32,000 nucleotides of DNA from Candidatus Omnitrophota bacterium (GTDB lineage Bacteria; Omnitrophota; Gorgyraeia; 2-01-FULL-45-10): contig JAMWCX010000003.1 in NCBI GenBank assembly GCA_023818895.1, positions 150,001-182,000 of the forward strand, read 5' to 3'. The number at the start of each line of letters is the position of its first letter. Within the stretch, counting starts at the first letter, position 1. This document shows, piece by piece, positions 2,914 through 27,352 of the stretch. Below the pieces are notes generated by a model, which ran no database searches, was not told the DNA's origin, and was given only the letters and a program-made list of their open reading frames with translations. Made by a program: the position numbers and the translations under genes.

Positions 2914-4401
2914 ATGCCAAAATACTACTTATACGCCCGCAAGTCAACGGATGATGAAGACAGGCAGATATTGTCTATTGGATCTCAACTCAATGAACTC
3001 CGGGAATACGCTCAACGGGAAAATTTGTTTCTACTGGAGGAATTTATCGAAACCAAGACCGCTAAGAAACCCGGCAGACCTATCTTCGACTTTATGCTTA
3101 AGCAGATTGAGGCGGGCGTAGCTAACGGTATTTTGGCATGGCATCCGGACAGGCTTGCCCGTAACTCTGTAGACGGCGGAAAGATTATCTATTTAGTAGA
3201 TGTTGGTAAGATTCTTGACCTTCGCTTCCCCACTCTTCGCTTTGATAACTCTGCCCAAGGAAAGTTTATGCTCTCTATCGCCTTCGGGCAAAGTAAATAT
3301 TATGTTGATAATCTTTCCGAGAATATTAAGCGCGGGATGAGGGAAAAGTTAAGACGCGGAATCTGGCCTAATTGGGCCCCACTTGGTTATCTGAATAATT
3401 ACAAAGAACACAATATCTACCTTGATCCGGAAAAGGCTCAGTTTGTAAGGAAGATTTTTGAACTCTATGCCACAGATAGTTATACCCTCTCATCAATGGT
3501 TGAAGAAATTCGCAGGTGGGGCCTTACAGGAAGCATGGGCAAGCCTGTCTGTAAATCGCAACTGGCAAGGTTATTGAGGAATCCGATTTATTACGGTGTA
3601 TTCAAGTTTAACGGTGAAATGTATGAAGGAAGCCACCCGCCGCTTATCTCTAAGAAACTTTTTGATAGCGTGCAGGATATTTTGGACAACCGCCACCGCA
3701 ATCATAAACCCGCAGAAACGAAATATGCCCTTACCGGGTTAGTAAAGTGTGATTACTGCGGTTGTGCAATTACCGCAGAGAAACAAAAAGGACACATTTA
3801 TTACCACTGCACCAAAAAGAAAGGCCCCTGCTCAAGCAAAAAGTTTCTTAGAGAAGAGGCTTTGCTTTCTCAAATAAACGAAGCGATCAAAAAAGTTTTT
3901 ATAGACGATTCAACAAAAGACAAAATGATTAACCGCTTTGACGAACTCTTCCAAGAGGAAAGCAAAGCCTCCTCTTCTCTATCTCAAGAAGTTAAAAACC
4001 GAATCAGCGAATTTGATGCAAAACTTGAGCGACTCGTTGACATCTTCATTGACCGCCAGATTACTCAAGAGGAATACACCAAAAGGAAGGCAAAACTGCT
4101 CAACGATAAGAAGGATTTAGAAGGGAAACTCAAAGAGATAGAGAAAAGCGGCGGCGGGTGGCTCGAACCGGCAAAACAATTCGTAACTACTTGTAATAGA
4201 GCTGGTTCTGTCGCTTGGCAGGAAATTTTAAGCCCCAAAAAAGATTTTTTGAAAATTTGCGGCTCGAACCTCATCCTAAAAGACACAACCCTATGCGTTA
4301 CATATAAAAAGCCCTACGACTTCATCGCGAAATCGCAGGGCTGTCCTGACTGGCGGAGAGGCAGGGATTTGAACCCTGGATACCGGCTTTCACCAGTATA
4401 G
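2914..4401 (+). CDS. Large serine recombinase (resolvase catalytic domain + recombinase domain + zinc ribbon + coiled coil)
   Basis: YLYARKSTDDEDRQ...SIGSQ and HPDRLARN are the catalytic-domain motifs. LRNPIYYGV marks the recombinase domain. CDYCG...YYHC is the zinc ribbon, followed by a coiled coil (EFDAKLERLVDIFIDRQITQEEYTKRKAKL). SD GGAGGG at 2901-2906. The last 15 codons (4357-4401, RGRDLNPGYRLSPV*) are antisense of tRNA-Ser, so the C-terminal tail is context dependent. Confidence 0.9.
   Translation: MPKYYLYARKSTDDEDRQILSIGSQLNELREYAQRENLFLLEEFIETKTAKKPGRPIFDFMLKQIEAGVANGILAWHPDRLARNSVDGGKIIYLVDVGKILDLRFPTLRFDNSAQGKFMLSIAFGQSKYYVDNLSENIKRGMREKLRRGIWPNWAPLGYLNNYKEHNIYLDPEKAQFVRKIFELYATDSYTLSSMVEEIRRWGLTGSMGKPVCKSQLARLLRNPIYYGVFKFNGEMYEGSHPPLISKKLFDSVQDILDNRHRNHKPAETKYALTGLVKCDYCGCAITAEKQKGHIYYHCTKKKGPCSSKKFLREEALLSQINEAIKKVFIDDSTKDKMINRFDELFQEESKASSSLSQEVKNRISEFDAKLERLVDIFIDRQITQEEYTKRKAKLLNDKKDLEGKLKEIEKSGGGWLEPAKQFVTTCNRAGSVAWQEILSPKKDFLKICGSNLILKDTTLCVTYKKPYDFIAKSQGCPDWRRGRDLNPGYRLSPV
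4220..4356. repeat. Right arm of the perfect 137-bp inverted repeat (IR-R)
   Basis: It covers the last ~45 codons of the recombinase body (QEILSPKKDFLKICGSNLILKDTTLCVTYKKPYDFIAKSQGCPDWR). It also covers the terminal 6 nt (CCGCCA) of tRNA-Ser. Confidence 0.95.
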
Positions 4402-4444
4402 CGGTTTAGCAAACCGCCGCCCTAGGCCACTAGGCGACCTCTCC
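4351..4444 (-). tRNA. tRNA-Ser (anticodon GCT), CCA encoded
   Basis: Hand fold: acceptor GGAGAGG/CCTCTCC, anticodon stem GCGGT/ACCGC with loop TTGCTAA, a long variable arm (type II), T arm CAGGG-TTCAAAT-CCCTG, discriminator G, then CCA. Confidence 0.9.
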
Positions 4445-4661: not shown

Positions 4662-5300
4662 TTATTTAAAAATACGCGTGCCGTTGCGCTGATGCTTGTA
4701 CCTGAAGGTGCTGGTGCTGGGAAGATTATTGCTATCGGCCATAAACATCGTCTCAACAAGCGCATATGTGCCGTCACCGCAGCGCACAGCATAAATCCGA
4801 CCAGGTGCTCCGCTTGCTGCATCCTTGTATCCGGAGGCAGGCGCCTCGACTACGTTTTCAAGGCCAACGGGGCCCAGATCTACGAGGCCACCGCGGGATT
4901 CTATCCAGCCCTCGCGGCGCCTGAAGTCTGACTGGACCGGAAAAGGCGAAGTCTCCCGCGTCTTCGACCGGGTTGAAAAGTTAAAACCCTCTATGTCGAA
5001 ATTAGGCGGATGAGGAAGCTTGTACTGCGTCAGGGTAAAATTGCCAATGGTCACCTGCGACGCGGCCGGCGAGGCCGGGACCGGCGGGGTAGCCCCGCCG
5101 GTCCCGCCAGTCGTGCCGCCTGTCCCGCCGCCCGCTCCGGGCTGATCGCCAGTTCCGTCCCTGGCCGCTATCTTGATCTTCTCAATGACCTTCTCGCCAA
5201 GTCCGCTTGAGTCCGCTATTTCGGGCGAAAGCGTCGCGTAGACGAGGTCGCCGCGCAGGTTCCGCAGCCTCATGGAGCCTTCCTCGAGGGCGAACAGCAT
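4662..5300 (-). CDS. C-terminal fragment of P2 (212 aa): last strands of the NTF2-like module + Gly/Pro linker + C-terminal beta domain
   Basis: MLFALEEGSMRLRNLRGDLVYATLSPEIADSSGL aligns with P1 MMFVIEDGRMKIQNLRGNLIYATLSPEIAESSGL. VEAPASGY...GRIYAVRCGDGTYALV aligns with P1 VEAPTSGY...GDVYVFITRGGLYGKL. Confidence 0.6.
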   Translation of the reverse strand: MLFALEEGSMRLRNLRGDLVYATLSPEIADSSGLGEKVIEKIKIAARDGTGDQPGAGGGTGGTTGGTGGATPPVPASPAASQVTIGNFTLTQYKLPHPPNFDIEGFNFSTRSKTRETSPFPVQSDFRRREGWIESRGGLVDLGPVGLENVVEAPASGYKDAASGAPGRIYAVRCGDGTYALVETMFMADSNNLPSTSTFRYKHQRNGTRIFK

Positions 5301-5318
5301 CGTCGTGTTGCCTTTCGT

Positions 5319-7775
5319 CTACTGCTGCTTGCCTGTCTTCCTGACCGACTGGGTCTTATCCCATTTTGTTTCGGCAACGAATTCGGCACCGCGCTTCTCT
5401 ATCCTGTTAAGGAACATCGAAAGCCGTATACCGTCGAAAGTATCAAAATCGCGGCGGATGCCGTCTTCCAGAAAAGACCTATTGCCTATAAAATCCCTTG
5501 ACACCAGCGCCAAAAAAGCGGCGGCGTTCTTTTTCTCGTACGCCTCGGAAAGCTTCTTTACCACTTCTGCGACGAGCTGCTTATAATCTGTTCCCGGCGG
5601 TATACCAGGCGATGGACTTTGCGGGCCAGCCGGCCCCATAGTCGGCGGTGCAAGAGGAGGCGTGACAGGACTCTTATGCTTGGCGCTCCAGTCGCTTTCG
5701 ATCCGGGACAGGATCGCTTTGAGACGACCAACAACTCCATCTAGATTAGCACCTTTTGTGGCGCTCTGCATCTCGGCTTTGATACTCTCCATATTCTTAT
5801 TAAAACTTTCTTTGTCGAGGCTTGACCACCCCGGCCTTTCCTTTTCTATGCGCTCCCATATCTTATAAAGAGCGATCGCCTTTCCAGCGCGCGATGATGG
5901 TTCGAATGCGGCCGACGGTAGCTCGGGAATGGTCTCGAAACACTTGGCATAAGCAGCAACACCCGCTCCTTGTACTCGTTGGTATGTTTTGTCATCCATC
6001 GCAGGTGCCCTTAGGTATGCGTTTTCCACGCGCGATGCCGCATTCATATCACTGATGATCTCGCGATTAAGTCCTTTCACGCCGTCGACATAATAGTAGT
6101 AGTGCGCCAAGGCCTTGGTATATTTACTGTTGAGCAAATCGGATTCTTTCCGCAAGTTTTCATAGCTGGCCATAATCTTTTTCGCCGCTTCATAATTTCC
6201 GTTCGCCATAGCATCAACCAACTGTCTTTCGAAGAGGTTTGCGTCGAATGTCATCGAAAGTATGCTCGTCATCCCTCCCTTGGAAGTACTGTAGTAAAAT
6301 TCGCTTGCCGGTGGGTTCCGCTTCACCCCAAAACCTGAGGCCGCAACTAACTTATCGAATGCCGCAGCACTTCCTTCCATCTGCGAGAAGGCATTCTCCA
6401 TGTTCGTGTAATACTCATCAAGCTGCGTGGAAACGGCTTCATAAGCTTTAATCTTCGCCTCGAACATCTTTGCCAGCGTCTTCTCGTTCTTCGAAGATAT
6501 CTGGATAGCGTCCGGCAATAGTTTATCAATTCGCTCAAGGTCCGTATCGAGTGAGCTCGCTGTCGATAAGAAATCCGGTCCCCGCGAAGTTCTATCGAAA
6601 TTAACATACCCTGGAACGAGCCTGGAGAAGAGCCAAATAATCATCCTCTTCTGATCGACCGACCCCGCCCCTTGAATCTTAACGCGCTCATTCTCAAGCT
6701 GCTCACCTTGCTCAATTAATTTGGTAAACCTCCTCTCTTTCACCGCAAGCTCTGTAGCAGCCGCAATAAGCGATTTTAAGGTAGCTCGCAAACCACTTAC
6801 CGTTGATATCCACCGTGTAAAGACCTCTTGGCCTTTTTTAGCCCCTGCATGCAATTCAACGATCTGCTCTGCCGACAACGGTACGGCTGGATCTATCTCT
6901 TTAGGGACTTCGAAATACTGGAATTCCGCCATTTTGGCGGTTATATCGTCGAGCTGCAAACGAATCTTTTCGCGCTCCTCAATGATAGACTTAGCAAGTG
7001 GCGGCATCTCTTTCTCAAAGACAGCGGCAGCCGCGTCGTACTTTCTTGCCCATGCCTCGTAATCGGCGTCCGCTTTGCCTGTTAGGGCCAGCGGCGGAAG
7101 CGCCGCGGGCGCGCTTCCATCGGCCTTCTTATTCGCCTCGTTGACTATCTCATTGATCTCTTTTTCCTTCTTTTCCTTCAGAGTATTTATCAGGCGTGTC
7201 TGAAGCCCTCCCTTCCTTTTTACAAGAAGCTGATTCTCTTTATATAGTTCTGGCGGTTCACTCTCGATCTTCAACTTTGTTACCTTAAGCTCCGCGATAA
7301 TCTCATCTATCCTTTTTTGAAACTTTTCTATGCCATCGAGAGTATTTTTGAAACGGCGGTAGATCATAGCGATTTGGTCGTCCTCGCCAACATCGGAGGT
7401 CATACGAAGCCAGCCGTGGTATTCCCCGGCGCTCAACGATAGCTCCCACTGAAACTTTCGCATCTCAGGCACAATCGCGCTGGCATCTGAGCTAAGCTTC
7501 TTCACTGCCCTGCCATACGGAGACCGGGCCATCTGCTGAAGCGTATCCATCGCATACTCGTGTCCGCATGATCCAATAATACCCAATACAGTCGCCTCGG
7601 CAAATCCGGTCGCGAATTTGACCTTCGTCACCGTTTCGAATCCGACGGTGATCGTCGATTTGATAAGGTTCTTCCTCAGTATGGGTTGTAACTGCTGTTT
7701 AAGAGCCTCGAGGTCATTATAGACCCTTTCAAGGTCAGCCCGTCTTTGGGGATACGCCTTGAGGAATTCTTCCAT
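5319..7775 (-). CDS. Middle fragment of P2 (818 aa from the first ATG; the frame is open up to 7838): helical region + Pro-rich linker + most of an NTF2-like module
   Basis: Track ORF. It ends ...AETKWDKTQSVRKTGKQQ* where P1 reads ...ADTRWIKSQVPRSTGQQQR. As called it has no signal peptide of its own. Confidence 0.6.
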   Translation of the reverse strand: MEEFLKAYPQRRADLERVYNDLEALKQQLQPILRKNLIKSTITVGFETVTKVKFATGFAEATVLGIIGSCGHEYAMDTLQQMARSPYGRAVKKLSSDASAIVPEMRKFQWELSLSAGEYHGWLRMTSDVGEDDQIAMIYRRFKNTLDGIEKFQKRIDEIIAELKVTKLKIESEPPELYKENQLLVKRKGGLQTRLINTLKEKKEKEINEIVNEANKKADGSAPAALPPLALTGKADADYEAWARKYDAAAAVFEKEMPPLAKSIIEEREKIRLQLDDITAKMAEFQYFEVPKEIDPAVPLSAEQIVELHAGAKKGQEVFTRWISTVSGLRATLKSLIAAATELAVKERRFTKLIEQGEQLENERVKIQGAGSVDQKRMIIWLFSRLVPGYVNFDRTSRGPDFLSTASSLDTDLERIDKLLPDAIQISSKNEKTLAKMFEAKIKAYEAVSTQLDEYYTNMENAFSQMEGSAAAFDKLVAASGFGVKRNPPASEFYYSTSKGGMTSILSMTFDANLFERQLVDAMANGNYEAAKKIMASYENLRKESDLLNSKYTKALAHYYYYVDGVKGLNREIISDMNAASRVENAYLRAPAMDDKTYQRVQGAGVAAYAKCFETIPELPSAAFEPSSRAGKAIALYKIWERIEKERPGWSSLDKESFNKNMESIKAEMQSATKGANLDGVVGRLKAILSRIESDWSAKHKSPVTPPLAPPTMGPAGPQSPSPGIPPGTDYKQLVAEVVKKLSEAYEKKNAAAFLALVSRDFIGNRSFLEDGIRRDFDTFDGIRLSMFLNRIEKRGAEFVAETKWDKTQSVRKTGKQQ

Positions 7776-7996
7776 ACGAATAATGGAATCGGCAATGGGG
7801 TCGATCTTGCTTTGGACATATTGAATCTCTTTTTCTAGCTAATAAACATCTTCCTCGGCAATGGATGATGGTTGCAGGGGTAAAAAGACTGTGGCAACAA
7901 GGGGAATGAAGGTAATAAAAATAACATATCTGTATCTCATAGGGTCCTCCCTAAGAAATGATAGCGGCGGTTTTAATGAAGTAATAGCATTCTATA

Positions 7997-10900
7997 TCAT
8001 CGCGTAGCGATATCCCGCGAACCGTTGGTCTGGACAGCATATTCAAACGTCACTGTATCATTGACCATCGGAACATTGACCAGAGAGGTTATGCGCAATT
8101 TTCCGTAAAGGCCACCCCTTGTTATGAAAACATAGACATCACCCACCGCTACAAAAGCCAGACCGGTATAGCCGCTTGTTGGAGCTTCCACCAGGTCATC
8201 GAAAGAGCTTGTGGATTTTTGTATCTGAGCTGTGCCATTCATCAGGAATCTATTCATCTCCATGAAATCGAAATCGCCTACGCCGGTGGTTGTAATAGTG
8301 CCGGTGGCAAAGTCAAGACCGCGGACATTGGGACCAAAAGGCGGTGGGGCAGAGGTAATACTAACCGTCCTAGTAGTAAGGCCTCCGGGCGAAGAAACTC
8401 CCCCTGACTCCTCAGTTTGACCAGCGCCCGGCTGGACTGGAGTGCGCGTCTGCTGGGCAATCCTGATCTCTTCGACGGTCGTCTGCGACAGGCCGCTTGA
8501 CTCCGCTATCTCAGGAGAGAGAGTGGCGTATATGAGGTTTCCGCGTAGGTTCTGGATTTTCATTCGGCCATCTTCAATGACAAACATCATCGTAGTATTA
8601 CCGCTTGTGCGCTGTTGCTGGCCGGTCGAGCGGGGCACCTGGGACTTTATCCATCTTGTATCCGCTGAATAGGTGTTGCCTCGTACCTCTATCTTGTTTA
8701 TAAATATCTGAAGGCGTATGTTGTCGAACATATCGAAGTCAAACCGAACACCCTCTTCCAGGAATGTGCGGTTTCCCAGAAAATCCCTTGATATGAGGTC
8801 CGCGAAGCGTGCCACGCTCTCAGCCTCGTACGCTTCGGCAAGTTCCTTCACAACGGCCACCACGAGATCCTGGTAATCTATGTTCTGGTATTGTATGCCC
8901 TGGATGTTCTCGAAGGGTTTGATAACAAACTCGTCCATGTCAACGCCTTTTATCTTCACGGCTATTTGGTAAGTACGATTTGGTATCGGTGTAAAAGAAT
9001 ACCTTATTGCCTGGTCGACCGGAAGCTCGTTCCAGGTCCTTCCGTCATCGACGGATATGAGGAGCTTTTCTATTCTATCTTTGGTATTGAGCCGAGCGCT
9101 AAACTCTATGGCGTTATTCTTAAGGTCCGAGTTTGTGAACATAACCATTCCCGATGTGATGCTTTTTAAGTTGTTGCCGTTAACACGCGCGTCATAAAGC
9201 TTATAAAAGGACATCGGGTCAACCGGCGGTGATATGGGCATAGGGGCAGTCGGGCCTATGGGGCCTTTTGGCCCGGTCGGCGGCTGTGTCGGTATGGGAC
9301 CGGTCGGGCCTATGGGCGCGGTCGGCACTGTCGGCGTCGTCGGCGCGGTAGGAGCGGCTGGGCCGGGGGGGCCTTTTGGAGTCGTCGGCAAGTTTTTTAG
9401 ATACTCCTCTCTTTTATTAAGGATATCTTGTAAGGTATTGAGCGCGCTTAAATACTTATTCCCTAGAGGGTTATTGTAATCGCCCTCAAATCCTTTATGC
9501 CGTTCGGTGACAGCATACCTAACAGTCTTCGATGAGGGAACTAGCGCCCCAGCAAAACCCTGCGCTGTCGAAACCGCCATTATTGCCTTCTCAAACTCGA
9601 TATCGCTTGAGTTGTATTTCAAGTTATTGACTGCCGCTACGAATCGATCGAGCTCACTCTGCCAAATAACATGAGTTCCTTCGGAATTCCTTACGATGGC
9701 ATTTTCTTCTGAAGCCGTTTTTATTCCTGCCGGAGCCTTCAGAATCTTCTGAACCCAGGTGTAGACGTTAGGTGCGTACTTTCTCATGAACTCATATCCA
9801 GGGTACCTCTCCCAGTCCTTAGCGATGCTATCTATACGGGCTTTGACTTCAGACTCCAACATGTAATGGCGGTACGGAGTGCTTGTTACGAACATTCCGT
9901 CCATAACCTCGAAAATAAGTTCGTAGTTACCATTCACTTTCTTAAAAACTTTCTTTGCCAGTTCATCCTCAAAAAAATCGTTAACTTCCCGGGCTCTTTC
10001 CTCGAGCCAGGCAGCGTCTTTTTGGCGGTTCTCGGCATCAGATTTGACTCCTTTGAATCTCTGGCTCAAATCTGAAATAAACGAAGGGAGTTTCGCGACA
10101 GCGCTGTCGATCGATTTTTTCTCGGTATAAATAGCGTTCAGGTCCAGCGGGCCATTCGACTCTTTTAGCATAGTATTTATATTTACAAAATCTTGGTCAG
10201 AAGGCTTGTCGGCCTTCTGCCACATATCGGCATATGACTGCCAGGTGGAAAAAAATTTCTGGACTTCTGCTATAATAATACCCGCGTCGACCGGGTCTAT
10301 GCCATCCGCTCTTATCTTTTGTGCAAGAGTATTAATCTCTGATATCAACTCAACCTGATTACGCGGCTTCTCAAAGACAACCAGATGAGTGTACTTGTTC
10401 TTCTCTATCATAGAGAGGATCTCATCAAGTCGGCGTAATTCCTTATACATGTTGTACTGAGAGGTTGCAAACACACCCGTACTCATGTCCACAGTTCGCC
10501 CTGTGTTGATCATATCTATAGGAAGGTGCTGCTTTATCTTTTCCACAAGACCACGATACTTGGTTAGCTCAGCTTTGCGCAGAGCCCTTACCGCCTCATA
10601 TGCGCTCGCGATCTCTCCCATAGCCTCCCAGATTCTGTTCACATATTCGTGGCTTTCCTTCTTTATCCTTAAAATCTCATCAAACGCTTGCCGCGAGGCC
10701 TCGTTGAAAGCGTCTTCCTCTCTGCTTATCCTCGATGCTTCTTTGTAATCCTCCTTATCCTTAGCGGCCCTTTTTCTGGCAGCGAAGACAATATTTTGTT
10801 CATGAACGATCTCTGAAAGCTTTGAGTATATTTTTTTATAATATTCCTCTACAAGATTATCCTGCTCCCTCCACCTATTCCTGAGCTCCCAACCTTCCTT

Positions 10901-11884
10901 AAACTTGCCTTCTTTTAAAAGTTTTTCGATGTCTTTCTTGTATTGTTCGCCATCCTTAACCCAGCTATCAAAATTCTCCCGCTGCATAATGGGAAGAAAG
11001 AACTGGCGATAATAACCATCGGCTCCTGGTGAAGTTATGTTTGGTGATGGCGCTGAGGCAGGCCTGGCGGTCTTTACCTGCAGTCTTGTAGTCTCGCTTT
11101 GTATTTTTTCCAGACTCTTTTCTTTCGCCTTCTTATATCGCCCTTCCAATTCCGCAAGGCGAGCATTTAACCTTTCTATCTGCGGCATTATTTCGTTTAG
11201 TCGCTCTCTTGCTGCTCTATGTGTATTGTCCAGCTGCGTCATAAAACCATTGAGGACATTTCTGGCATTTCGTATCTCTTCGAACAACATATGATATTTC
11301 CTGTAAACCGCAGCCCTTTCCGTAAGCTCTTCGCCTTCCTCCTCTCTCGCAACTGCTTGGACTTCCTCGATCGTCATCCTCAAGGTGTTCTGCACATTCT
11401 CAAGGACTGGATATAGCTGTCTGGATTGTTCACTTATGCCTCTCATGGCTTGGTTATAAGAAGCGCTCATGAAATATTCGCCGGCCTGCTGGCCGGTCTC
11501 TGTAAGCGCTGACGCTATAAGAACTCCTACCGATTTTTGCAATGCACCGTAGCCAGCTGAGATAAGTGAGAAAGTGTCCAGCGAGGCTTTCATCACATCC
11601 TTGAGAATGTTGTTACGGAAAAACGTCGATAGCCTCTCTTCGAACCTATCCAGCTCTGTCATGATATTTGCGAGCGTGTCTCTTGCGGTAGGATACTCAT
11701 CCATGAATAGCCGCAGGTTAGCTTCCTCCCTCAGTAGCGGATCCAGATGGCGATGAGTCTCTTCTATCTCCTTCTGTAGATAATAGGGATCTTCATCGGC
11801 AAAAAGAGGGGCTAGTCCGAATAATGCCGAAACGGAAATAATTGAAAGCCAAACTATGATAAGATTGCGATATCTTTTGATCAT
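7997..11884 (-). CDS. P1: 1295-aa secreted multidomain protein of unknown family. Domain order: signal peptide, ~950-aa helical/coiled-coil region, Pro-rich linker, Ig-like beta domain, NTF2-like module, Gly/Pro linker, C-terminal beta domain.
   Basis: The ORF is long and uninterrupted. The signal peptide is MIKRYRNLIIVWLSIISVSALFGLAPLFA/DED. Heptad-like stretches occur (RLNEIMPQIERLNARLAELEGRYKKAKEKSLEKIQ). The linker is PTTPKGPPGPAAPTAPTTPTVPTAPIGPTGP.... There are no TM segments after the signal peptide. Confidence 0.85.
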   Translation of the reverse strand: MIKRYRNLIIVWLSIISVSALFGLAPLFADEDPYYLQKEIEETHRHLDPLLREEANLRLFMDEYPTARDTLANIMTELDRFEERLSTFFRNNILKDVMKASLDTFSLISAGYGALQKSVGVLIASALTETGQQAGEYFMSASYNQAMRGISEQSRQLYPVLENVQNTLRMTIEEVQAVAREEEGEELTERAAVYRKYHMLFEEIRNARNVLNGFMTQLDNTHRAARERLNEIMPQIERLNARLAELEGRYKKAKEKSLEKIQSETTRLQVKTARPASAPSPNITSPGADGYYRQFFLPIMQRENFDSWVKDGEQYKKDIEKLLKEGKFKEGWELRNRWREQDNLVEEYYKKIYSKLSEIVHEQNIVFAARKRAAKDKEDYKEASRISREEDAFNEASRQAFDEILRIKKESHEYVNRIWEAMGEIASAYEAVRALRKAELTKYRGLVEKIKQHLPIDMINTGRTVDMSTGVFATSQYNMYKELRRLDEILSMIEKNKYTHLVVFEKPRNQVELISEINTLAQKIRADGIDPVDAGIIIAEVQKFFSTWQSYADMWQKADKPSDQDFVNINTMLKESNGPLDLNAIYTEKKSIDSAVAKLPSFISDLSQRFKGVKSDAENRQKDAAWLEERAREVNDFFEDELAKKVFKKVNGNYELIFEVMDGMFVTSTPYRHYMLESEVKARIDSIAKDWERYPGYEFMRKYAPNVYTWVQKILKAPAGIKTASEENAIVRNSEGTHVIWQSELDRFVAAVNNLKYNSSDIEFEKAIMAVSTAQGFAGALVPSSKTVRYAVTERHKGFEGDYNNPLGNKYLSALNTLQDILNKREEYLKNLPTTPKGPPGPAAPTAPTTPTVPTAPIGPTGPIPTQPPTGPKGPIGPTAPMPISPPVDPMSFYKLYDARVNGNNLKSITSGMVMFTNSDLKNNAIEFSARLNTKDRIEKLLISVDDGRTWNELPVDQAIRYSFTPIPNRTYQIAVKIKGVDMDEFVIKPFENIQGIQYQNIDYQDLVVAVVKELAEAYEAESVARFADLISRDFLGNRTFLEEGVRFDFDMFDNIRLQIFINKIEVRGNTYSADTRWIKSQVPRSTGQQQRTSGNTTMMFVIEDGRMKIQNLRGNLIYATLSPEIAESSGLSQTTVEEIRIAQQTRTPVQPGAGQTEESGGVSSPGGLTTRTVSITSAPPPFGPNVRGLDFATGTITTTGVGDFDFMEMNRFLMNGTAQIQKSTSSFDDLVEAPTSGYTGLAFVAVGDVYVFITRGGLYGKLRITSLVNVPMVNDTVTFEYAVQTNGSRDIATR

Positions 11885-11902
11885 CTATTTATGCCTTTCA
11901 TC

Positions 11903-12400
11903 TTATAATGGTGAGTTCCCCTTTATGTCGTAAAGCCGCCACGCTCCGTTCTCCTGCCTGTAAACAAACATGCACTGACCTTTAAAATTTCGCTGCAGGC
12001 CCGTCTTTCGGACCATGACCTTTTTTTCCCACGAGAATGAAACCGCAAGTTTGTCAGCTGTCCTGTTGACTGTGCTTATGAAAAAATCGACTTGTGTGGG
12101 CTTCGCGCTGTAATATCTGCGCTCCACGCGGTTAACGAAAGCGTATTTGTCATTCGGAAAATCATCCGATACGCGATCAGTAAATTGACCTCGCGTGTAG
12201 CTCGTATAAGAGCTTATCGTCTCGGATACAAGCCTCTGGGCAAGGGACCTATCTTGTGCTGTAGTAACCTGCGGCCCTCCTTCGCAAAACAAGGGTGACG
12301 CATGAAAAAAAACTGATGTGGCCAAAATAAGAACAGCGATCCAGAACCGATTAGAAATTACTGAGAAAGCGAGTGATGATCCTCGTCTCGTCATACGCAT
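11903..12400 (-). CDS. 165-aa secreted protein consisting of a signal peptide plus the same NTF2-like module found in P1/P2
   Basis: The track ORF starts at 12436. I prefer ATG 12400 (MRMTRRGSSLAFSVISNRFWIAVLILATSVFFHASPLFCEG), which shortens the overlap with the upstream gene. The C-terminal ...FSWEKKVMVRKTGLQRNFKGQCMFVYRQENGAWRLYDIKGN parallels P1 ...TRWIKSQVPRSTGQQQRTSGNTTMMFVIEDGRMKIQNLRGN. Confidence 0.7.
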   Translation of the reverse strand: MRMTRRGSSLAFSVISNRFWIAVLILATSVFFHASPLFCEGGPQVTTAQDRSLAQRLVSETISSYTSYTRGQFTDRVSDDFPNDKYAFVNRVERRYYSAKPTQVDFFISTVNRTADKLAVSFSWEKKVMVRKTGLQRNFKGQCMFVYRQENGAWRLYDIKGNSPL

Positions 12401-14087
12401 TTCCGCTATCCTCCGCGTTATATCTGTTGAATTCACCTCTCAGAACAACCCGCGTATTGCGCTTCTTTTCCATAAGCAGGTTAAACTCAGCGTAATTCAT
12501 CGCGTTGAAATACCCCTGGGCCGGGCCTGCGGCTGTAGAAGCGTTGACATTATATCCGAAGTAAAACATGTGTTCGGCCAGAAAATTATACTGGCCCGTT
12601 ATGCCGAAGCCCGTGATAACTTCGTCGTCGTCTTCCGATTTCTGGTCGTGAAAATCCATACTAATGTTCGCATTACAATAGAATCTTTTTCCGAATATCT
12701 GCTGCTCGCGGCCGACATTACCTCCTAGGCGGTAAAAATAGTCCGAGCTCTTGCTGTTATACCTGTCAGTGTAACCCCTGAACTCGTAAAAAAGACCGTA
12801 GGAAGTCTTCTCATCAAGGTTGTCATTGATGCTCAGGCCGGGGGTGAGAGTAATTGTATTTATAAGGTGGGCAGGATCGTCTGAATTACGCTGCTGGATA
12901 TTAGTATAAGCGCGTATGTTAAAGTCGGGGTCCTTGTCAAGAGGAGCAAGCGTAAGAGTTATGTACTGCTCGTCATTTGTAGTCCGGTATGAACGTTCGC
13001 TTCTTGCAAGACGGTCCCAGTAATAGTTCTCCACGAATGATAGTCGCGCTTTTTTTGTAAGATCGGCATCAACGGTGAATTGGTGCTGCATCTTATCCGG
13101 CATAGCTGAACCGGAATCAGTGTAAAACTGCGGGGTGACATAATAGTAGAGGTATTTGACCGAAAAAGGGCCATATCTTAACCTGGGCTGAATCCTTAAC
13201 GCCGTCCCCCAGTTCACGTCGGTATTGACCTTCTGGTCAGGCGTATAGGCGCTTCCGGCAAGCTCATAGACGACGCTGAAAAACTTCCTGAAGTTTATCT
13301 CTCCATCCCAGCTTACGACAACATTGTGGAGATCCGGTATCGGTGTCTGCCTGTTCGTATTATCTACCGTTCCTCTGTCATCTTCGTTTGCTATGACCTG
13401 GAGGCCGTTCCGGAAAAGGGTAAAATCTTCAGATCCCTGAAATAGAAAAAGATCGGCCTTGCCGCCGGCTACATTGCGCCAGTAGGTGGCGGCGTCGGGA
13501 TCGGGGCTTTGGCTCCGGGCAGCCACGCCTTTAAATTGAAGTGTGTCGGATCCTTTGAGCTCCAGCGCAAATCCTTCCAGCGAATTGCCGAGGACAAACT
13601 GGGAAAAATCCCCGTAGAAATCACCGAATAACAGCATGTTTTCGGAATTGTATATCTTGGTGGTAAGCTGCTTTAACCGCAGGTCTTTTCGGCGCTCTAT
13701 CCTGCGGTCATCGGTGCGCCTTACAAATACCTGGCCTTCAAAACTATAGCCTTTCCAGAGACGCTCATAGGCGTTAACGTTAACTTCCGTATTCTGGTAT
13801 ACGCCTTTGCGCAGGAATGAATTATTGCCGTTTCCGCCCACATCGTTCCAGCTGACGTCTTCCATGACGCTACCGGTGATCATGCCTGACCGTTCAATAC
13901 CGTAATCGCCGTAAGAGGCAAAGTCCAAAAGATCGTCCACCCTCTTCTGCCATGTAAAAGCCGGGACCGCCTCGCCGGCCTCTCCGACGGTAGCGCCTTC
14001 TCCAAGATAGAAGACCTCGGCAGCGTAAAGTGAGGGCGCTAGGAAAAAAATGGAGAATAATAGGCAATGGTATCTGAAATATTTCAT
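12351..14087 (-). CDS. 578-aa predicted outer-membrane beta-barrel protein
   Basis: Signal peptide MKYFRYHCLLFSIFFLAPSLYA/AE. Alternating aromatic/polar strand patterns run throughout, with abundant Y/F/G/N/D. The C-terminus ...TRIITRFLSNF ends in Phe, which is typical of BAM-assembled barrels. No POTRA-like or plug motif recognised. Confidence 0.7.
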   Translation of the reverse strand: MKYFRYHCLLFSIFFLAPSLYAAEVFYLGEGATVGEAGEAVPAFTWQKRVDDLLDFASYGDYGIERSGMITGSVMEDVSWNDVGGNGNNSFLRKGVYQNTEVNVNAYERLWKGYSFEGQVFVRRTDDRRIERRKDLRLKQLTTKIYNSENMLLFGDFYGDFSQFVLGNSLEGFALELKGSDTLQFKGVAARSQSPDPDAATYWRNVAGGKADLFLFQGSEDFTLFRNGLQVIANEDDRGTVDNTNRQTPIPDLHNVVVSWDGEINFRKFFSVVYELAGSAYTPDQKVNTDVNWGTALRIQPRLRYGPFSVKYLYYYVTPQFYTDSGSAMPDKMQHQFTVDADLTKKARLSFVENYYWDRLARSERSYRTTNDEQYITLTLAPLDKDPDFNIRAYTNIQQRNSDDPAHLINTITLTPGLSINDNLDEKTSYGLFYEFRGYTDRYNSKSSDYFYRLGGNVGREQQIFGKRFYCNANISMDFHDQKSEDDDEVITGFGITGQYNFLAEHMFYFGYNVNASTAAGPAQGYFNAMNYAEFNLLMEKKRNTRVVLRGEFNRYNAEDSGNAYDETRIITRFLSNF

Positions 14088-14090
14088 ATG

Positions 14091-14588
14091 CTATTTTTTG
14101 CGATGCGATTTATCATATGTTGCGTTAATCTTTTTACAATGACGCTTTATCCTGAAGAATTCCCGCATTAACCTTGCGCAATCTTCCCTAAGCAATCCTT
14201 TTATGATTTTTATTCTATGATTTAATCTTGAGCTGTCAACAATATTTAGCACCGAGCCGGCCGCTCCCGCTTTCGGGTCGCTTGCTCCATAAACAAGCTT
14301 CTTCACCCGGCCCAGCACCATCGCGCCCGCGCACATCGGGCAGGGTTCAACCGTGGAATATACGGTGGTATCAAGTAGGCGCTCATTCTGAAGGTACGCT
14401 GCAGCCTGAGTCAGGGCAATCATTTCGGCATGGGCGGTAGGGTCTTTTAACATTTTTATCTGATTATGCGCGCGGCCTATTATCCGGCCTTTGTGAACAA
14501 TAATGGCGCCTACCGGCACCTCGTCAGCCTCGAAGGCTTTGTGCGCTTCTTTCAAGGCTTCCCGCATATATAGCACATCAGTGGACAT
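14091..14588 (-). CDS. tadA: tRNA-specific adenosine-34 deaminase
   Basis: VPVGAIIV...HAEMIAL...PCPMCAGA are the CDA-fold zinc motifs (HAE, PCxxC), with the typical TadA length. The true start is ATG 14588 (MSTDVLYMREALKEA). The track ORF extension to 14810 is read-through of the tRNA gene. Confidence 0.9.
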   Translation of the reverse strand: MSTDVLYMREALKEAHKAFEADEVPVGAIIVHKGRIIGRAHNQIKMLKDPTAHAEMIALTQAAAYLQNERLLDTTVYSTVEPCPMCAGAMVLGRVKKLVYGASDPKAGAAGSVLNIVDSSRLNHRIKIIKGLLREDCARLMREFFRIKRHCKKINATYDKSHRKK

Positions 14589-14733: not shown

Positions 14734-14810
14734 TGGCGTGCCCGGCAGGATTCGAACCTGCGACCTACTGGTTCGTAGCCAGTCACTCTATCCAACTGAG
14801 CTACGGGCAC
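14734..14810 (-). tRNA. tRNA-Arg (anticodon ACG), CCA encoded
   Basis: Hand fold: GTGCCCG-TA-GCTC-AGTTGGATA-GAGT-G-ACTGG-CTACGAA-CCAGT-AGGTC-GCAGG-TTCGAAT-CCTGC-CGGGCAC-G-CCA. This is a perfect cloverleaf. Confidence 0.95.
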
Positions 14811-15262: not shown

Positions 15263-16594
15263 CTAAATTTTTATAATCCTCTGTATCACGTTCTTCAGCT
15301 TATCGCTATCGTGGCGCACCAGCTCCGTCTGGTGAGTTATATCTGCCCTTATTACCTTGGCTTTTGTAATCTTTTTTATTTTTTCGAGGTCCCCAAGCTT
15401 TACCGGAAACTGCCCTTTCGCCTTGTAAAGCCCTAGAAGCCTTTTAGAAACCTTGGAGTTAGAAACTACTATATAATCGAGATAATCTCCTCTCATGTAA
15501 TTAATGATCTCTCTTACGTGTTCGAACACTCCGTAATGGGCGGTTTCGCCGGGTTTGGTCATTAGATTGCAGACATATACCTTCTTAGCACGTGTCCGGG
15601 CAAGCGCCTCTGGTATATGCTCAACGATAAGATTGGTTATTACGCTTGTAAAAAGATCGCCTGGCCCTATCACAACAACATCCGCATTCAAGATGGACGC
15701 GAACGCATCGATGTTGCAAACAGCGCATGGCTCATGCCATAGACCCTTGATGCGGAGTTTTGGGTTCCTCCCTTCCGCAAGGTCTATCTTGTTTTCGCCT
15801 CTTATTATCTTACCGTGTTCAAACATTGCCATAAGCCTGACATTCGTGTCAGTTACTGGTATAACTATCCCCTGGATGTTTAATATATCCCCCAAACACC
15901 TGACACCCTCTTTCATCGAACCTGTGATTTCGTTAAGAGCGGTAAGAAATAAGTTGCCGAAATTATGACCTTGGTATTTTTCCCCACCTTTCCTGAACCT
16001 GTGCTGTAAGACTTCGTTCATAAGCAGCGGGGCATTTGAAAGCGCTACAAGGCTTCGCCTAACGTCGCCGGGCGGCAGCATGCCGAATGATTCCCTAAGT
16101 TTTCCTGTAGAGCCGCCGTCATCGCTCATGGCGACAATTGAATTTATCAAGACATGCGGTAGTTTTTTTAGTCCCATAAGAAGATTAAAAAGCCCTGTGC
16201 CGCCACCCATGCATGTTATTCTCACCTTTTTGTGGTAGCAGGAATTTATTCGAAGTATTAGTTCTCTGTAATTGTATGGGCGAATTACAATCTCGGAGGC
16301 TCCGAAGCTTTCCGCTTCCTCCGCAAGGCAAAAACTCGATGAAGATGACAGGAATATGAAACTCTTTCCTGAAGTTCTCAATATCTTTAAAAAATCGAGT
16401 CTTTTCGAATCAAGTCCTCCAGAAAATGCGTCATTGTCAAATAGCGCGCATGCCACATCACCGCGTCTTATTTTTCTTTTTATATCTGTCGCTGTGAACG
16501 CAAAATCAAAAGGTATGGCTATCTGCGCGAGTATGCTTTTAATTTCTCTGGCTTCCCTGCCTCGGCAGATTACGAGTATCTTTTTTTGGGCCAT
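15263..16594 (-). CDS. YvcK/CofD-family (UPF0052, gluconeogenesis-factor-like) protein with an N-terminal degenerate receiver-like domain
   Basis: CMGGGTGLFNLLMGLK...AMSDDGGSTGKLRESFGMLPPGDVRRSLVAL is the YvcK/CofD signature. The N-terminal ~120 aa has REC topology but reads ILVICRGRE where the acidic pair is expected. Confidence 0.85.
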   Translation of the reverse strand: MAQKKILVICRGREAREIKSILAQIAIPFDFAFTATDIKRKIRRGDVACALFDNDAFSGGLDSKRLDFLKILRTSGKSFIFLSSSSSFCLAEEAESFGASEIVIRPYNYRELILRINSCYHKKVRITCMGGGTGLFNLLMGLKKLPHVLINSIVAMSDDGGSTGKLRESFGMLPPGDVRRSLVALSNAPLLMNEVLQHRFRKGGEKYQGHNFGNLFLTALNEITGSMKEGVRCLGDILNIQGIVIPVTDTNVRLMAMFEHGKIIRGENKIDLAEGRNPKLRIKGLWHEPCAVCNIDAFASILNADVVVIGPGDLFTSVITNLIVEHIPEALARTRAKKVYVCNLMTKPGETAHYGVFEHVREIINYMRGDYLDYIVVSNSKVSKRLLGLYKAKGQFPVKLGDLEKIKKITKAKVIRADITHQTELVRHDSDKLKNVIQRIIKI

Positions 16595-16709: not shown

Positions 16710-18218
16710 CTAATCGCCCTCGTTAACTGATTGAGGCATAACCTGCTGATCAGGGTATATTCTGAACATACTCTTCAGGCCCTTTTGGTCCCATTTCAGG
16801 TCAAGCCATTGATCGCGGGCGCTCTTTATGGCTATAAATGGCGCGATAGTATCATTCACGGTTTGCGTTGTCTTGCCGACTATGGTCATCGGAACATAGA
16901 TTACGTCTCCGTCTTCAATCTTTATATTATTGGCAAGGTTACCCCTGTAGATCAAGTCAAAGGCATCTACCTTCTTGACAATAGGTGCTATCTCGTCAGG
17001 TTTAATGACAATGACCCTTCCCAGCGCCCTATTATTTCCCCAATCAGACAGGAAGAGGGCATCGCGCAGAGTGAAGTTCGGTCTGGTTATCGGATAAGGC
17101 GTGCAGCCTACCTCGTCAACGAAATAAAAAAGCTTACTGGTAGATACCAGCCTTACGGCGACATACGGATCCTTGACAAACTTGTTGACCTCAGCCCTTA
17201 GCTTCTCGGTGGCCTCCTCTATCGTAAGACCTTTTACCGCTACAGGGAGCTCAACGAGGGGCAAAATTACGTTTCCATCGCCTCCAACAGAAAGGTTGCC
17301 GCTAAGCTCAGGATGCTCATATACAATGAGCTGCACCACATCTCCAGCGGAAAGTGTTAGCGAGACTGATTTAGCTTCCTCCTCCTTAAGGCGCGCTATT
17401 ATCTCATCTACCGTCAGACTTAGCTCGGCCTCATCGAGCAACGAATCGCTTGTCTTCTCGCTTTTATTCATAATATCTTTCGCGGTAAAATTTGCATCAG
17501 CACCTTCGGTCTCACTCTCCAGCTCTCTTACCATATTGTCAATGCGCACCTCCCGCGAATAGAGGCCTTTTAGCTTATTCATATAATGTTTGGCCTGCAA
17601 ATTTCCTGGGTCAAGTTCAAGTACATCGCGGAAGCTCACCACCGCGCTTTCATATCTTTTTTGCTCATAAGCCGTTATTCCGTCGGCAAGCGCTCTCTTT
17701 ATCCTCTGTTTTTTGCGAAAAGAGGCCTCCTGTAGTGACTTCGCCTTCCATTGTGCTTCCTGGAACCTGTTGGCATTTTCGACTTTTGATAGGTAGTTTT
17801 TAACGTATTTATTCTGGGGGTCTTTTTCTAGTATATACTTGAGAATCTCTATCGCCTCTTCGTATCTACCCTGCTCATAAAATTTGGTAGCCGCGCCAAA
17901 ATATCGGTAAAGTTTCTCATCCTCCGTAAGAGGTGCTGCTTCATAGCTAGCTGCTGCGAACGTGGATGCTCTGCCGGTAATATACGGGCTGAGGAGCCTA
18001 TCCTTACCACGGAATTGGTAGGCATACTCGCGATCAGCTTCATGCCTTTCGCGCTCTGTGAGACCAGAGGGGGCAACTATGACAGGGCCGCTTGCCAGCG
18101 CAGTTTCCTCAACGGCCGCAAAAAGACAAATTTCCGCGGTAACTATAAAAACCGCGGCGCATACAAAAGCAACCTCTGCCGGCCTGATAAGTCGGGATTT
18201 TCCGAAATCCGTATACAT
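16710..18218 (-). CDS. Polysaccharide export protein (Wza/Poly_export + SLBB) with an N-terminal TPR region
   Basis: TPR-like repeats are present (YFGAATKFYEQGRYEEAIEILKYILEKDPQN; GITAYEQKRYESAVVSFRDVLELDPGN). The Poly_export pattern is LSAGDVVQLIVYEHPELSGNLSVGGDGNVILPLV..VAVKGLTIEEATEKL. The SLBB-like end is IKIEDGDVIYVP. Confidence 0.85.
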   Translation of the reverse strand: MYTDFGKSRLIRPAEVAFVCAAVFIVTAEICLFAAVEETALASGPVIVAPSGLTERERHEADREYAYQFRGKDRLLSPYITGRASTFAAASYEAAPLTEDEKLYRYFGAATKFYEQGRYEEAIEILKYILEKDPQNKYVKNYLSKVENANRFQEAQWKAKSLQEASFRKKQRIKRALADGITAYEQKRYESAVVSFRDVLELDPGNLQAKHYMNKLKGLYSREVRIDNMVRELESETEGADANFTAKDIMNKSEKTSDSLLDEAELSLTVDEIIARLKEEEAKSVSLTLSAGDVVQLIVYEHPELSGNLSVGGDGNVILPLVELPVAVKGLTIEEATEKLRAEVNKFVKDPYVAVRLVSTSKLFYFVDEVGCTPYPITRPNFTLRDALFLSDWGNNRALGRVIVIKPDEIAPIVKKVDAFDLIYRGNLANNIKIEDGDVIYVPMTIVGKTTQTVNDTIAPFIAIKSARDQWLDLKWDQKGLKSMFRIYPDQQVMPQSVNEGD

Positions 18219-18296
18219 TATGTTAAAAATATATCATATAATTCCCACATAGTCAAATGAGCTTCGGCATCACAGATTACTGTATAAGAGGTGTCC

Positions 18297-18325
18297 TTGA
18301 CAGTATCTTCTAATCCTGCTATAGT
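18297..18325 (+). promoter_or_regulatory. Near-consensus sigma70 promoter (TTGACA-17-TATAGT) for the PilZ gene, implying a leaderless or near-leaderless mRNA
   Basis: TTGACA at 18297-18302, a 17-nt spacer, TATAGT at 18320-18325. The ATG at 18334 is only 8 nt after the -10 element and there is no SD. Confidence 0.45.
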
Positions 18326-18333
18326 ATCATGTT

Positions 18334-18975
18334 ATGAAAGGGAAAAAATATTTTCTTATCGCGGCGGTCCTTTATTCCTTGATTGTTTTAGGAGCCGTCT
18401 TTTACGCTGTAAACATAGGACCTTCGACAGAAATTTTTCTATTAACGTCTATACTTATATTTCTCGCGTTCACAGGCATATTCACAGCATGGTCGTTAGC
18501 CGCTTTTCACAGAAATATCGAGTTAATAGCCTCTGAGATGGTAACTAAATACGAAAATATCGAACGCCTCCTTATCGATATACGAGATGGGACGAGGTAT
18601 TTCTACAGAGAGAAGAGACGCTCTTTTAGAATCAAAACCGATATACTTGCGCGTTTCGCGGATGGGAGGCAAACTGGAGACGATTTCTTAAAGATACATG
18701 ATTTAAGTTATGACGGTGCCTTACTTAAGACGACGCACCAGTTGAAGCCTGGCGATACTGTCAAGCTTGCCATCTATCTTCCGTTCTTTTCTGAACCGAT
18801 TACCGCAAAAGCGCGGATAGTAAGGGTCCGTCCTACGTCAGAGACAAAGGGTGCGTCCGCTGTTTATGAGGCGGGAATAGAATTCTCTGATATGAGTCCT
18901 ATCGACAACGAGAAACTTATTGAAACGGTCAACATATTAAGCAAAATGTCCCGCAAAAATATATCCCGCCGATAG
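18334..18975 (+). CDS. Membrane-anchored PilZ-domain (c-di-GMP-binding) protein
   Basis: Two N-terminal TM helices. The PilZ motifs are RRSFR (RxxxR) and DLSYDG (D/NxSxxG), followed by a beta-barrel-like segment. Confidence 0.85.
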   Translation: MKGKKYFLIAAVLYSLIVLGAVFYAVNIGPSTEIFLLTSILIFLAFTGIFTAWSLAAFHRNIELIASEMVTKYENIERLLIDIRDGTRYFYREKRRSFRIKTDILARFADGRQTGDDFLKIHDLSYDGALLKTTHQLKPGDTVKLAIYLPFFSEPITAKARIVRVRPTSETKGASAVYEAGIEFSDMSPIDNEKLIETVNILSKMSRKNISRR

Positions 18976-18976
18976 C

Positions 18977-19783
18977 TTAAGGCTCTTTTTCGGCCGTTGA
19001 TCTTATCTTCTGCTTATACTTGTAAAAGTGGTATCGCGAATCCAGGAGGTGAACCACGTTTGTCAGCACACATGCCTTAGGTGTAGCCTGTGCTTCGCTC
19101 AGGAGATTCAACGCTTCTTGAATCGCCTGCTCTTGGGTCGAAGCGGCCTTAACAACGAGAATAACCGCGTCACATAGCGAACCCAGTATGCTCGCATCCG
19201 TAAACTCAAGAACAGGTGGGCTATCAAAGATTGCGTAGTCAAAGGCTGATTTGATCTTTTTTATCAAAGGGTCTACATTGGTAGAGCTAAGTATTTCCGC
19301 CGGGTCGTCTATCGGGCTTCCTGCCGGTATGATAAAGAGATCTCCTATTGCCGGTTTAGTGGTGAACTTTTCCAACGAAACCTTGCCTGAAAGCAAATCG
19401 GAAAATCCCGGCTCATTTGGCAAGCCGAAAAAACTATGAATTGCGGGCTTACGCATGTCGGCGTCAATGAGTATCACCTTTTTCTCTTTGTCGTAGGATA
19501 TCGTTATCGCCAGATTACAGCAGGTTACTGTCTTACCTTCCCAGGGCTGACTGCTTGTAATCACAACCGTTTTTATCGGGTTCTCCGGAGAAAGTGAATA
19601 AAGATTGGTACGCAACGTCTTATACTGTTCGGCAACATATGAAAGCCTGTCAATATACGCTATGACGCGGCCGTCCACTCCTTCTTTATTGAAATCTTCA
19701 TGGACTATGTAGACCGGCGGCAAGTATCTACTCAAAGTCGTTCGTATTGAATTAAAAAATTCTGGGAAAACCTTCATTCTCAC
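18977..19783 (-). CDS. Polysaccharide tyrosine autokinase (BY-kinase, CpsD/Wzc catalytic-domain type)
   Basis: Walker A SSQPWEGKT, A-prime VILIDADMRKP, Walker B YAIFDSPPV, and a C-terminal Tyr cluster RYHFYKYK. The start is either GTG 19783 (GTGA overlap with the upstream stop) or ATG 19777. Confidence 0.85.
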   Translation of the reverse strand: MRMKVFPEFFNSIRTTLSRYLPPVYIVHEDFNKEGVDGRVIAYIDRLSYVAEQYKTLRTNLYSLSPENPIKTVVITSSQPWEGKTVTCCNLAITISYDKEKKVILIDADMRKPAIHSFFGLPNEPGFSDLLSGKVSLEKFTTKPAIGDLFIIPAGSPIDDPAEILSSTNVDPLIKKIKSAFDYAIFDSPPVLEFTDASILGSLCDAVILVVKAASTQEQAIQEALNLLSEAQATPKACVLTNVVHLLDSRYHFYKYKQKIRSTAEKEP

Positions 19784-21405: not shown

Positions 21406-21514
21406 ATCTTGGTATATTTTAATTTGCTGTAGTAAAGTATACTACATGTTCAATAATTGTCCAATAATTTTTCGTGGCGTGTCGATCATCATAGCTCCTA
21501 TTCGCCGCCTTGAC

Positions 21515-26198: not shown

Positions 26199-26203
26199 CG
26201 CTT

Positions 26204-27346: not shown

Positions 27347-27352
27347 ATCGCC

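Follow-up and report, generated by a model that had tools for sequence, protein, structure and literature searches.

A conserved outer-membrane gene module of Omnitrophota comprising a predicted 26-stranded barrel, a small NTF2-like protein and long exported proteins

A stretch of 32,000 nt from contig JAMWCX010000003.1 (assembly GCA_023818895.1, Candidatus Omnitrophota bacterium), here called the window, contains a run of genes encoding an outer-membrane (OM) beta-barrel, a small exported NTF2-like protein and two long paralogous proteins, P1 and P2, the latter apparently a pseudogene; the features are collected in Table 1, with coordinates given as window positions. This run is a conserved, lineage-specific OM gene module of Omnitrophota which has so far not been described, and the barrel, its NTF2-like partner and the long proteins probably make up a structure of the envelope or cell surface that is anchored by the barrel.

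Table 1. The gene module, the parts of its long proteins and the bordering genes (ORF, open reading frame; HMM, hidden Markov model)
Feature	Positions	Strand	Basis or remark
tRNA-Arg(ACG)	14734-14810	minus	
tadA	14091-14582	minus	
OM beta-barrel gene, 578 aa	12351-14087	minus	ORF; signal peptide ...SLYA/AE; last residues ...RFLSNF
Small exported NTF2-like protein, 165 aa	11903-12400	minus	ATG at 12400 behind GGAGGA Shine-Dalgarno sequence
P1, 1295 aa	7997-11884	minus	ORF; Sec signal peptide ...LFA/DED
P1 beta-sandwich domain (aa 892-1002)	8879-9211	minus	AlphaFold all-beta, pLDDT >90; HMM E 4e-40
P1 NTF2-like domain and helical hairpin (aa 1003-1153)	8426-8878	minus	Foldseek; HMM E 2e-78
P1 Gly/Pro linker (aa 1154-1168)	8381-8425	minus	low-confidence AlphaFold stretch
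P1 C-terminal beta domain, HmuY-like type (aa 1169-1295)	8000-8380	minus	AlphaFold; profile matches
P2, P1 paralogue, 1092 codons, pseudogene	4662-7940	minus	translation; HMM
P2 first in-frame TAG, codon 34	7839-7841	minus	context 'VY*LEKEIQ'
P2 second in-frame TAG, codon 874	5319-5321	minus	within NTF2-like domain
tRNA-Ser(GCU)	4351-4444		closes the region, with terminator 4342-4310

The genes are tightly packed: the stop codon of tadA and the start of the barrel gene are separated by 3 nt, the 3′ end of the barrel gene and the 5′ end of the small gene overlap by 50 nt, and gaps of 18 nt and of 56 nt (the latter containing GGGAGG) precede P1 and P2, respectively. In each product the signal peptide at the N-terminus is the only hydrophobic segment, and the small protein, P1 and P2 contain no CXXCH motif. 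An earlier note, made from the letters of this stretch, had already described the packing on one strand with these spacings, the Sec-type signal peptides and the barrel's C-terminal residues; the coordinates, all on the minus strand, the cleavage sites in barrel and P1, and the ORF translation agree with it. Scans for promoters and terminators gave nothing above shuffled expectation, the sole strong terminator being the one that follows tRNA-Ser.

Homologues of the barrel (25 sequences of 37-100% identity) are, where they bear a name (under half), all proteins of Omnitrophota metagenome-assembled genomes (MAGs). A motif-based scan of species-representative genomes, which can overlook divergent members, gave 37 loci, nearly all labelled Omnitrophota; the few with other labels look like placeholders or mis-binning. 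A profile search of 1.84 billion representative proteins returned 332 barrel relatives, 58 of them at E≤1e-30. HMMs of the barrel, the small protein and the three sub-domains at the C-terminus of P1 were mapped on six-frame ORFs of all loci, and the order of barrel gene, small gene and one to three genes for proteins with the P1-type C-terminal module (module proteins) was found in ~40 Omnitrophota loci. Of the 34 loci with enough sequence, at least 30 have the small gene directly behind the barrel gene, a module protein is encoded downstream in 25 of the 27 having at least 5.5 kb there, and two or three such proteins are present in eight loci. In many loci the stop of the barrel gene and the start of the small one overlap, by 1-50 nt, and the two genes are regarded as translationally coupled; the flanking genes vary between loci. 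The conserved co-occurrence which the earlier note had named as a test is thus present, with unrelated flanks; likewise, its statement that no recognisable family is involved stands, as Pfam, NCBIfam, PDB and Foldseek place barrel and P1/P2 with confidence in no characterised system. One MAG (GCA_015231405.1) encodes two barrel paralogues: the first (L001) precedes the small gene and genes for three long module proteins, and behind the second (L003) a short form of 448 aa alone is encoded, the small gene being missing there.

More distant barrels (E 1e-37 to 1e-58) also have exported partners. They are followed by a 157-aa NTF2 lipoprotein (L045), a 258-aa protein composed of signal peptide, beta-sandwich and NTF2 domain (L047), or a 499-aa protein in which a beta-sandwich is combined with an NTF2-like domain that Pfam recognises significantly as Cds6_C (L048). 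At E ~1e-21 to 1e-26 the barrels carry AMIN or TPR extensions and precede secreted CARDB or immunoglobulin-like (Ig-like) proteins; no NTF2 domain was detected in these partners of the most distant barrels. Because of the partners which distant barrels have, the ancestral unit seems to have been a large barrel with a secreted beta-sandwich(–NTF2) partner.

The barrel was modelled by AlphaFold2 with the 25-sequence alignment, and its strands were counted by DSSP. The model (mean pLDDT 86.7, pTM 0.75) has 26 strands; ~44 residues lie ahead of the first one, and no POTRA, plug or jellyroll domain is present. If the usual topology is taken, the periplasmic turns are mostly 2-4 residues long and the 13 external loops 6-16 residues; loops L1-3, L7 and L8 equal the strands in conservation, which is 0.70 for lumen-facing residues versus 0.59 for lipid-facing ones. 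Foldseek against PDB retrieved generic large barrels alone, at ~10% identity, with the best TM score (0.53) for the 26-stranded MtrB (6r2q_B, ~11% identity) and the best E-values (3e-9) for FimD ushers. Neither the single sequence nor the profile of the barrel matched Pfam, NCBIfam or PDB sequences above threshold, and the members of the alignment, when scanned individually, gave no Pfam match above threshold either.

The long proteins are best understood from their C-terminal ends. P1 consists of a signal peptide (aa 1-29), a charged, Cys-free N-terminal region (30-820), a Pro-rich linker (821-891) and the C-terminal module; the stretch universally conserved among the long proteins in all-against-all BLAST is the last ~400 residues, and relatives of P1 were sought with its C-terminal 404 aa as query. 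In the AlphaFold2 model of aa 892-1295 (27 homologues, pLDDT 86.9) an all-beta domain is followed by an alpha+beta domain with two helices, a Gly/Pro linker and a terminal beta domain. The first of these, a beta-sandwich with an Asp-box-like 'DGGxTW' motif ('SxDDGRTW' in P1), is present in most orthologues. The second (aa 1003-1116) has an NTF2 fold, as Foldseek aligns it with 3rob, 3hx8 and 3soy (target TM 0.69-0.76, root-mean-square deviation ~2 Å, E 2e-6 to 1e-5), while the NTF2-type Pfam matches at the sequence level (SnoaL_4, DUF4440) are below threshold; together with the hairpin 'NLRGNLIYATLSPEIAxSGL' it forms the best conserved stretch of the long proteins, judged by the invariant columns of alignment A2. 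At least three types of terminal beta domain exist: the HmuY-like one of P1 with the motif 'YGK...YAVQTxGSRx', that of P2, which ends in 'F[KR]Y[KR]xQxNGTRxF', and an Ig-like one. P1 and P2 match no Pfam or NCBIfam model above threshold and no PDB sequence family, and scanning each member of the module alignment likewise gave nothing above threshold.

By sequence, the small protein is a paralogue of the long proteins' NTF2 domain. The two are aligned by hhalign over 118 columns with a probability of 98.6% (E 6e-16), and BLAST finds the same relation at E 1e-9 and HMMs at E down to 1e-15. Against PDB the small protein gave marginal NTF2 matches only, and no match above threshold was obtained in Pfam or NCBIfam. 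A lipobox-like motif before a Cys is seen by eye in ~16 of 34 orthologues (a strict pattern matched 13 of the 34); the remaining ones have signals of the signal peptidase I type, and that of the window's own protein is ambiguous ('PLFC').

The resemblance of the terminal domain to HmuY raises the question whether the system captures a ligand. The A2 profile aligns with HmuY-like PDB entries (8b6a, E 4e-5 over 50 aa; 6eu8, E 7e-3 over 120 aa), so that the last ~50-120 residues of the P1-type domain are covered, and 4 of 28 module members match Pfam HmuY (PF14064), the best at E 0.0034 and below the gathering score. The barrel could then serve as a channel while a nutrient is bound by domains of the HmuY-like, Ig-like and NTF2-like kinds, comparable to HmuY-HmuR or SusC-SusD; NTF2-like folds often hold ligand pockets, and barrel and lipoprotein genes are adjacent. 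We consider this quite improbable. The barrel shows none of the features of a TonB-dependent receptor (it has no plug or Pfam match, and 26 instead of 22 strands); HmuY is a lipoprotein, whereas here the domain is the C-terminus of a giant protein. No invariant or near-invariant His or Met is found in the terminal-domain columns of A2, and a conserved His or Met that could serve as haem ligand is thus missing; moreover, in several species an unrelated Ig-like domain takes the place of the terminal domain, and N-terminal extensions of 800-1300 aa would be left unexplained.

P2 shares with P1 40% identity over the C-terminal 300 aa (BLAST, E 2e-58) and 21% over the N-terminal 250 aa (E 4e-14); the beta-sandwich of P1 (aa 892-1002) is absent from P2 and P2-like proteins according to HMMs. 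The frame of P2 runs from 7940 to 4662 without frameshift, but contains two TAG codons, 34 and 874. The first aligns with a Tyr of the 'YYLQxEI' box in P1 and in the L001 protein L001_G2, the second follows 'TGxQQ' at a variable position (Arg/Lys in homologues). TAG is the stop codon of at least five ordinary genes of the window (tadA, the tRNA-binding protein gene and those for the CofD-like, OPX and PilZ proteins), and with two such codons in frame P2 is regarded as a pseudogene, that is, as an inactivated paralogue as far as this assembly can be read; strain variation or an assembly error may be the source of the TAGs instead. The longest ORF left (5319-7775) is without signal peptide, and the HMM matches to the NTF2 and C-terminal beta domains are distributed over two ORFs. 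Recoding of, or read-through at, the TAG codons was considered and rejected, as TAG is an ordinary stop, the two codons align with differing residues, and the window encodes no suppressor tRNA. Of the modular plan which the earlier note had assigned to P1 and P2, the paralogy, the NTF2-like domain, the linkers and the C-terminal beta domain hold; its treatment of P2 as an intact gene with a working product does not, and the additional beta-sandwich of P1 had been missed.

Ahead of the conserved module, the long proteins are charged, poor in Pro and Gly and free of transmembrane segments; that of P1 contains no Cys, and no internal repeats were found in it. These N-terminal parts of ~800 aa are predicted, from composition only, to be helical. 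Several types of N-terminal "head" recur which are mutually unrelated. The long proteins could be thought of as periplasmic tethers or spacers, in which the module docks to the barrel from the periplasmic side and the helical part spans the periplasm (compare Omp-alpha of Thermotoga, Lpp, or the coiled coil of SlpA of Deinococcus). The composition of the N-terminal regions would suit such a rod, and some distant barrel relatives have periplasmic AMIN or TPR domains and weak SlpA_C matches. However, P1, P2 and six long orthologues gave no SLH, OmpA, LysM, SPOR or AMIN match, and a peptidoglycan- or SCWP-binding or membrane-anchoring element (SLH, OmpA_C, LysM, transmembrane segment) is lacking in the long proteins tested. 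Neither unrelated heads nor the PAAR variant described below are easily squared with a spacer, and the short forms have no rod at all, which makes this explanation unlikely.

All intact module proteins carry Sec signal peptides, including a 1735-aa protein (L012, 3733-8940) with a PAAR_motif domain at aa 588-651 (Pfam, E 1.3e-13) whose N-terminal region has no counterpart otherwise. The spike tips of type VI secretion systems, loaded in the cytoplasm, are what PAAR domains usually form. The short forms (L003, 448 aa; L022) represent the other extreme, consisting of signal peptide and module only and being encoded beside the barrel. A conserved terminal element on diverse cargo, one of them with a PAAR domain, invites the idea of dedicated secretion, in which the barrel would be a translocon that reads the C-terminal module as export signal and releases or presents the cargo, for example to prey or host cells. 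The Sec signal peptides, the likeness of the wide barrel to ushers in Foldseek, and the exchange of the terminal beta domain between HmuY-like and Ig-like types are in line with it; nevertheless we hold it for rather doubtful. In the module there is neither an energy source nor a POTRA domain, genes for a chaperone or a peptidase are absent as well, and a plug-less pore of 26 strands would require gating; a three-domain "signal" of 400 aa that is more conserved than its cargo, and that also occurs in cargo-less short forms, fits a structural partner better.

The module was also compared with known systems. Membership in the LptD, two-partner secretion (TPS), usher, type IX secretion system (T9SS), Mtr and TonB-receptor families was considered, and each fails on a defining feature. 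In its working the module would, by analogy, resemble most the plug-and-barrel or sheath-and-core complexes LptDE and MtrAB. Like LptD, the barrel comprises 26 strands, is without a plug domain and has a small lipoprotein partner; unlike LptD-LptE, it lacks an N-terminal beta-jellyroll, no LptD/OstA or LptE profile matches, the partner is NTF2-like, and there are additional long partners with a paralogous NTF2 domain. Large barrels have been described to need globular plugs, and LptD to be folded around LptE by BAM, the machinery that assembles beta-barrels (PMC13048289). MtrB of MtrCAB likewise has 26 strands, forms a sheath around a partner that links periplasm and surface, and is encoded with it in a single operon; its partners, however, are multihaem proteins with CXXCH motifs, of which the small protein, P1 and P2 are devoid.

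The secretion systems differ more. As in TpsB-TpsA, the barrel gene stands ahead of genes for very large Sec-dependent exoproteins, but TpsB has 16 strands and POTRA domains, compared with 26 strands and no POTRA here (Bac_surface_Ag, POTRA and ShlB gave no Pfam match at E≤1 in the barrel); Pfam and NCBIfam detect no TPS domain, and what would be the recognition element is the C-terminal module of 400 aa. The remark of the earlier note that the layout recalls the logic of two-partner secretion with unrelated parts is therefore fair, and its report of no TPS domain, ATPase, LPXTG, PEP-CTERM or T9SS C-terminal signal agrees with the profile searches, which gave no such match. T9SS cargo is also diverse and shares a C-terminal beta-rich element that is presumably aimed at an OM barrel; in contrast, the element described here has three domains and includes an NTF2 fold, TIGR04183 and TIGR04131 gave no NCBIfam match at E≤1 in P1 or P2, and genes of a T9SS were seen neither in the window nor in the loci. 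FimD and PapC are large barrels that pass folded subunits, and FimD has the best E-values in Foldseek; these ushers have 24 strands, a plug and periplasmic domains, whereas the similarity is restricted to the barrel at ~10% identity, no Usher, PapD or fimbrial Pfam match was obtained, and the module contains no chaperone or pilin gene. A literature search on 26-stranded barrels, on NTF2-like proteins with OM barrels and on the Omnitrophota surface found no such system; the giant proteins described for Omnitrophota are other, far larger ones at loci resembling type II secretion systems, and the module is not mentioned there (PMC10066038; bioRxiv 10.1101/2023.11.21.568195).

Taken together, it is possible, with somewhat less than even confidence on our side, that the long proteins are fastened to the OM by plug-and-barrel docking and have one end on the cell surface. 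A barrel of 26 strands with such short loops would have to be filled; known barrels of this size enclose a partner, and with loops of 6-16 residues, this one would be filled by its partner as LptD is by LptE or MtrB by MtrA. Its best counterparts in Foldseek, MtrB and FimD, likewise surround a partner or a substrate. The NTF2-like domains are proposed as docking or plug elements, because they are the sole elements common to every barrel partner and the most constrained ones; they might sit in the lumen or form NTF2-NTF2 heterodimers at the mouth of the barrel. One of the flexible Pro/Gly linkers would thread through the barrel, so that the long protein is held at the OM with one end exposed, and a barrel-anchored fibre, coat or set of adhesins with exchangeable N-terminal heads would result. 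In this genome P1 alone would be functional, P2 having been inactivated by two amber mutations. Display is favoured over a purely periplasmic role because the heads are diverse, the terminal domain is swappable, the partners of distant barrels are of adhesion type, and a PAAR variant exists.

Several points weigh against docking and display. The three parts are not strictly obligatory in cis, since in two loci (L013, L031) no module protein is encoded within 10 kb, and the small gene is missing from three others (L003, L022, L036). No signal of complementarity in charge or pI was found between the barrel lumen and the NTF2 domains, and the better conservation of lumen-facing residues is often seen in porins generally. 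That the protein forms one single barrel is predicted from the DSSP strand count and the full-length Foldseek alignment to single large barrels, and both the interaction of barrel and NTF2 domain and its topology are drawn by analogy.

Omnitrophota are uncultured and mostly ultra-small, and are thought to depend or prey on other cells; to our knowledge, almost nothing is known of what they expose on their surface. The module is a concrete candidate in this respect, a barrel and a docking module that carries several families of long exported proteins. If docking as outlined is true, it would, with parts unrelated to theirs, join LptDE and MtrAB as a third 26-stranded "barrel around partner" architecture. 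The barrel, its small NTF2 partner and the docking module at the C-terminus represent at least three protein families without Pfam or NCBIfam model, and with the last of them further cargo could be sought in metagenomes. A bolder version, which we regard as speculative and not very likely, would have a hitherto unrecognised Sec-dependent display or secretion pathway in which the plug-less barrel recognises the beta-sandwich–NTF2 module, the NTF2-like lipoprotein serves as resting plug or co-receptor, and interchangeable long effectors or adhesins, including the PAAR-bearing one, are threaded onto the surface of these ultra-small, probably host-dependent cells.

An exopolysaccharide (EPS) locus is encoded nearby (16710-31592), comprising genes for TPR-OPX, PilZ, BY-kinase-like, sugar transferase, epimerase, glycosyltransferase, Wzy and AsnB-like proteins. 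It lies upstream in the direction of transcription, the module being 3′ of it and not upstream as the earlier note had stated; 2.6 kb separate the two, occupied by a CofD-like gene, a tRNA-binding protein gene, tRNA-Arg and tadA. The connection to EPS which that placement implied also fails, as phmmer found no homologue of OPX, Wzy, BY-kinase or sugar transferase within 10 kb of the module in the ~40 other loci; one weak BY-kinase match in L036 (E 5e-8) was taken for a ParA-type ATPase. The adjacency is considered incidental for this reason. That the barrel might be the porin through which the polysaccharide of this locus is exported is accordingly very improbable: it is linked to the NTF2 and module genes instead, even though both loci share a strand, the OPX protein consists of Poly_export and TPR only, and one distant barrel relative matches DUF6029. 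OPX proteins without Wza_C have been described to pair with beta-barrel porins, for which DUF6029 was named as a candidate (PMC9603273).

The OPX protein itself (16710-18218) has N-terminal TPR repeats and a Poly_export domain, Wza_C not being detected, and may need a separate OM porin. PilZ is a receptor for cyclic di-GMP; a PilZ gene is located near the module (18334-18975), and PilZ genes flank the module in L006 (3183-3614 and 11568-11927). Downstream of giant genes of Omnitrophota pilZ genes have likewise been noticed (bioRxiv 10.1101/2023.11.21.568195). In the EPS locus a 541-aa ORF (19780-21405, minus strand) and the sugar-transferase ORF (21323-22942, plus strand) overlap by 83 nt at their 5′ ends as called, and one of the two starts probably lies further in; the former has no Pfam match and sits where a chain-length regulator would be expected. 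The CofD/YvcK-like protein (15263-16594) has an N-terminal extension of 125 aa without Pfam match.

The sole context gene that recurs near the module is tadA, which is found within ~2 kb of it in L015 and L027. TadA deaminates A34 of tRNA-Arg(ACG) to inosine, and in the window the gene for this tRNA is located immediately upstream of tadA on the same strand.

On the other side of the module, a perfect inverted repeat of 137 nt (2674-2810 and 4220-4356) brackets most of the gene for a large serine recombinase (2914-4401); its right arm is made up of the 3′ coding end of the recombinase gene and 6 nt from the beginning of tRNA-Ser(GCU). An invertible segment, a duplicated att site or an assembly artefact may be behind it, the length being near an assembler k-mer. 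The GC content is 0.32-0.33 over the first 2 kb of the window and 0.42 by 2-3 kb. Positions 1-2900 contain small ORFs only, among them by eye one for a helix-turn-helix protein (1946-2146) and others for zinc-ribbon membrane proteins, and this part, lying next to tRNA-Ser and the serine recombinase gene, has the look of a mobile element that has integrated.

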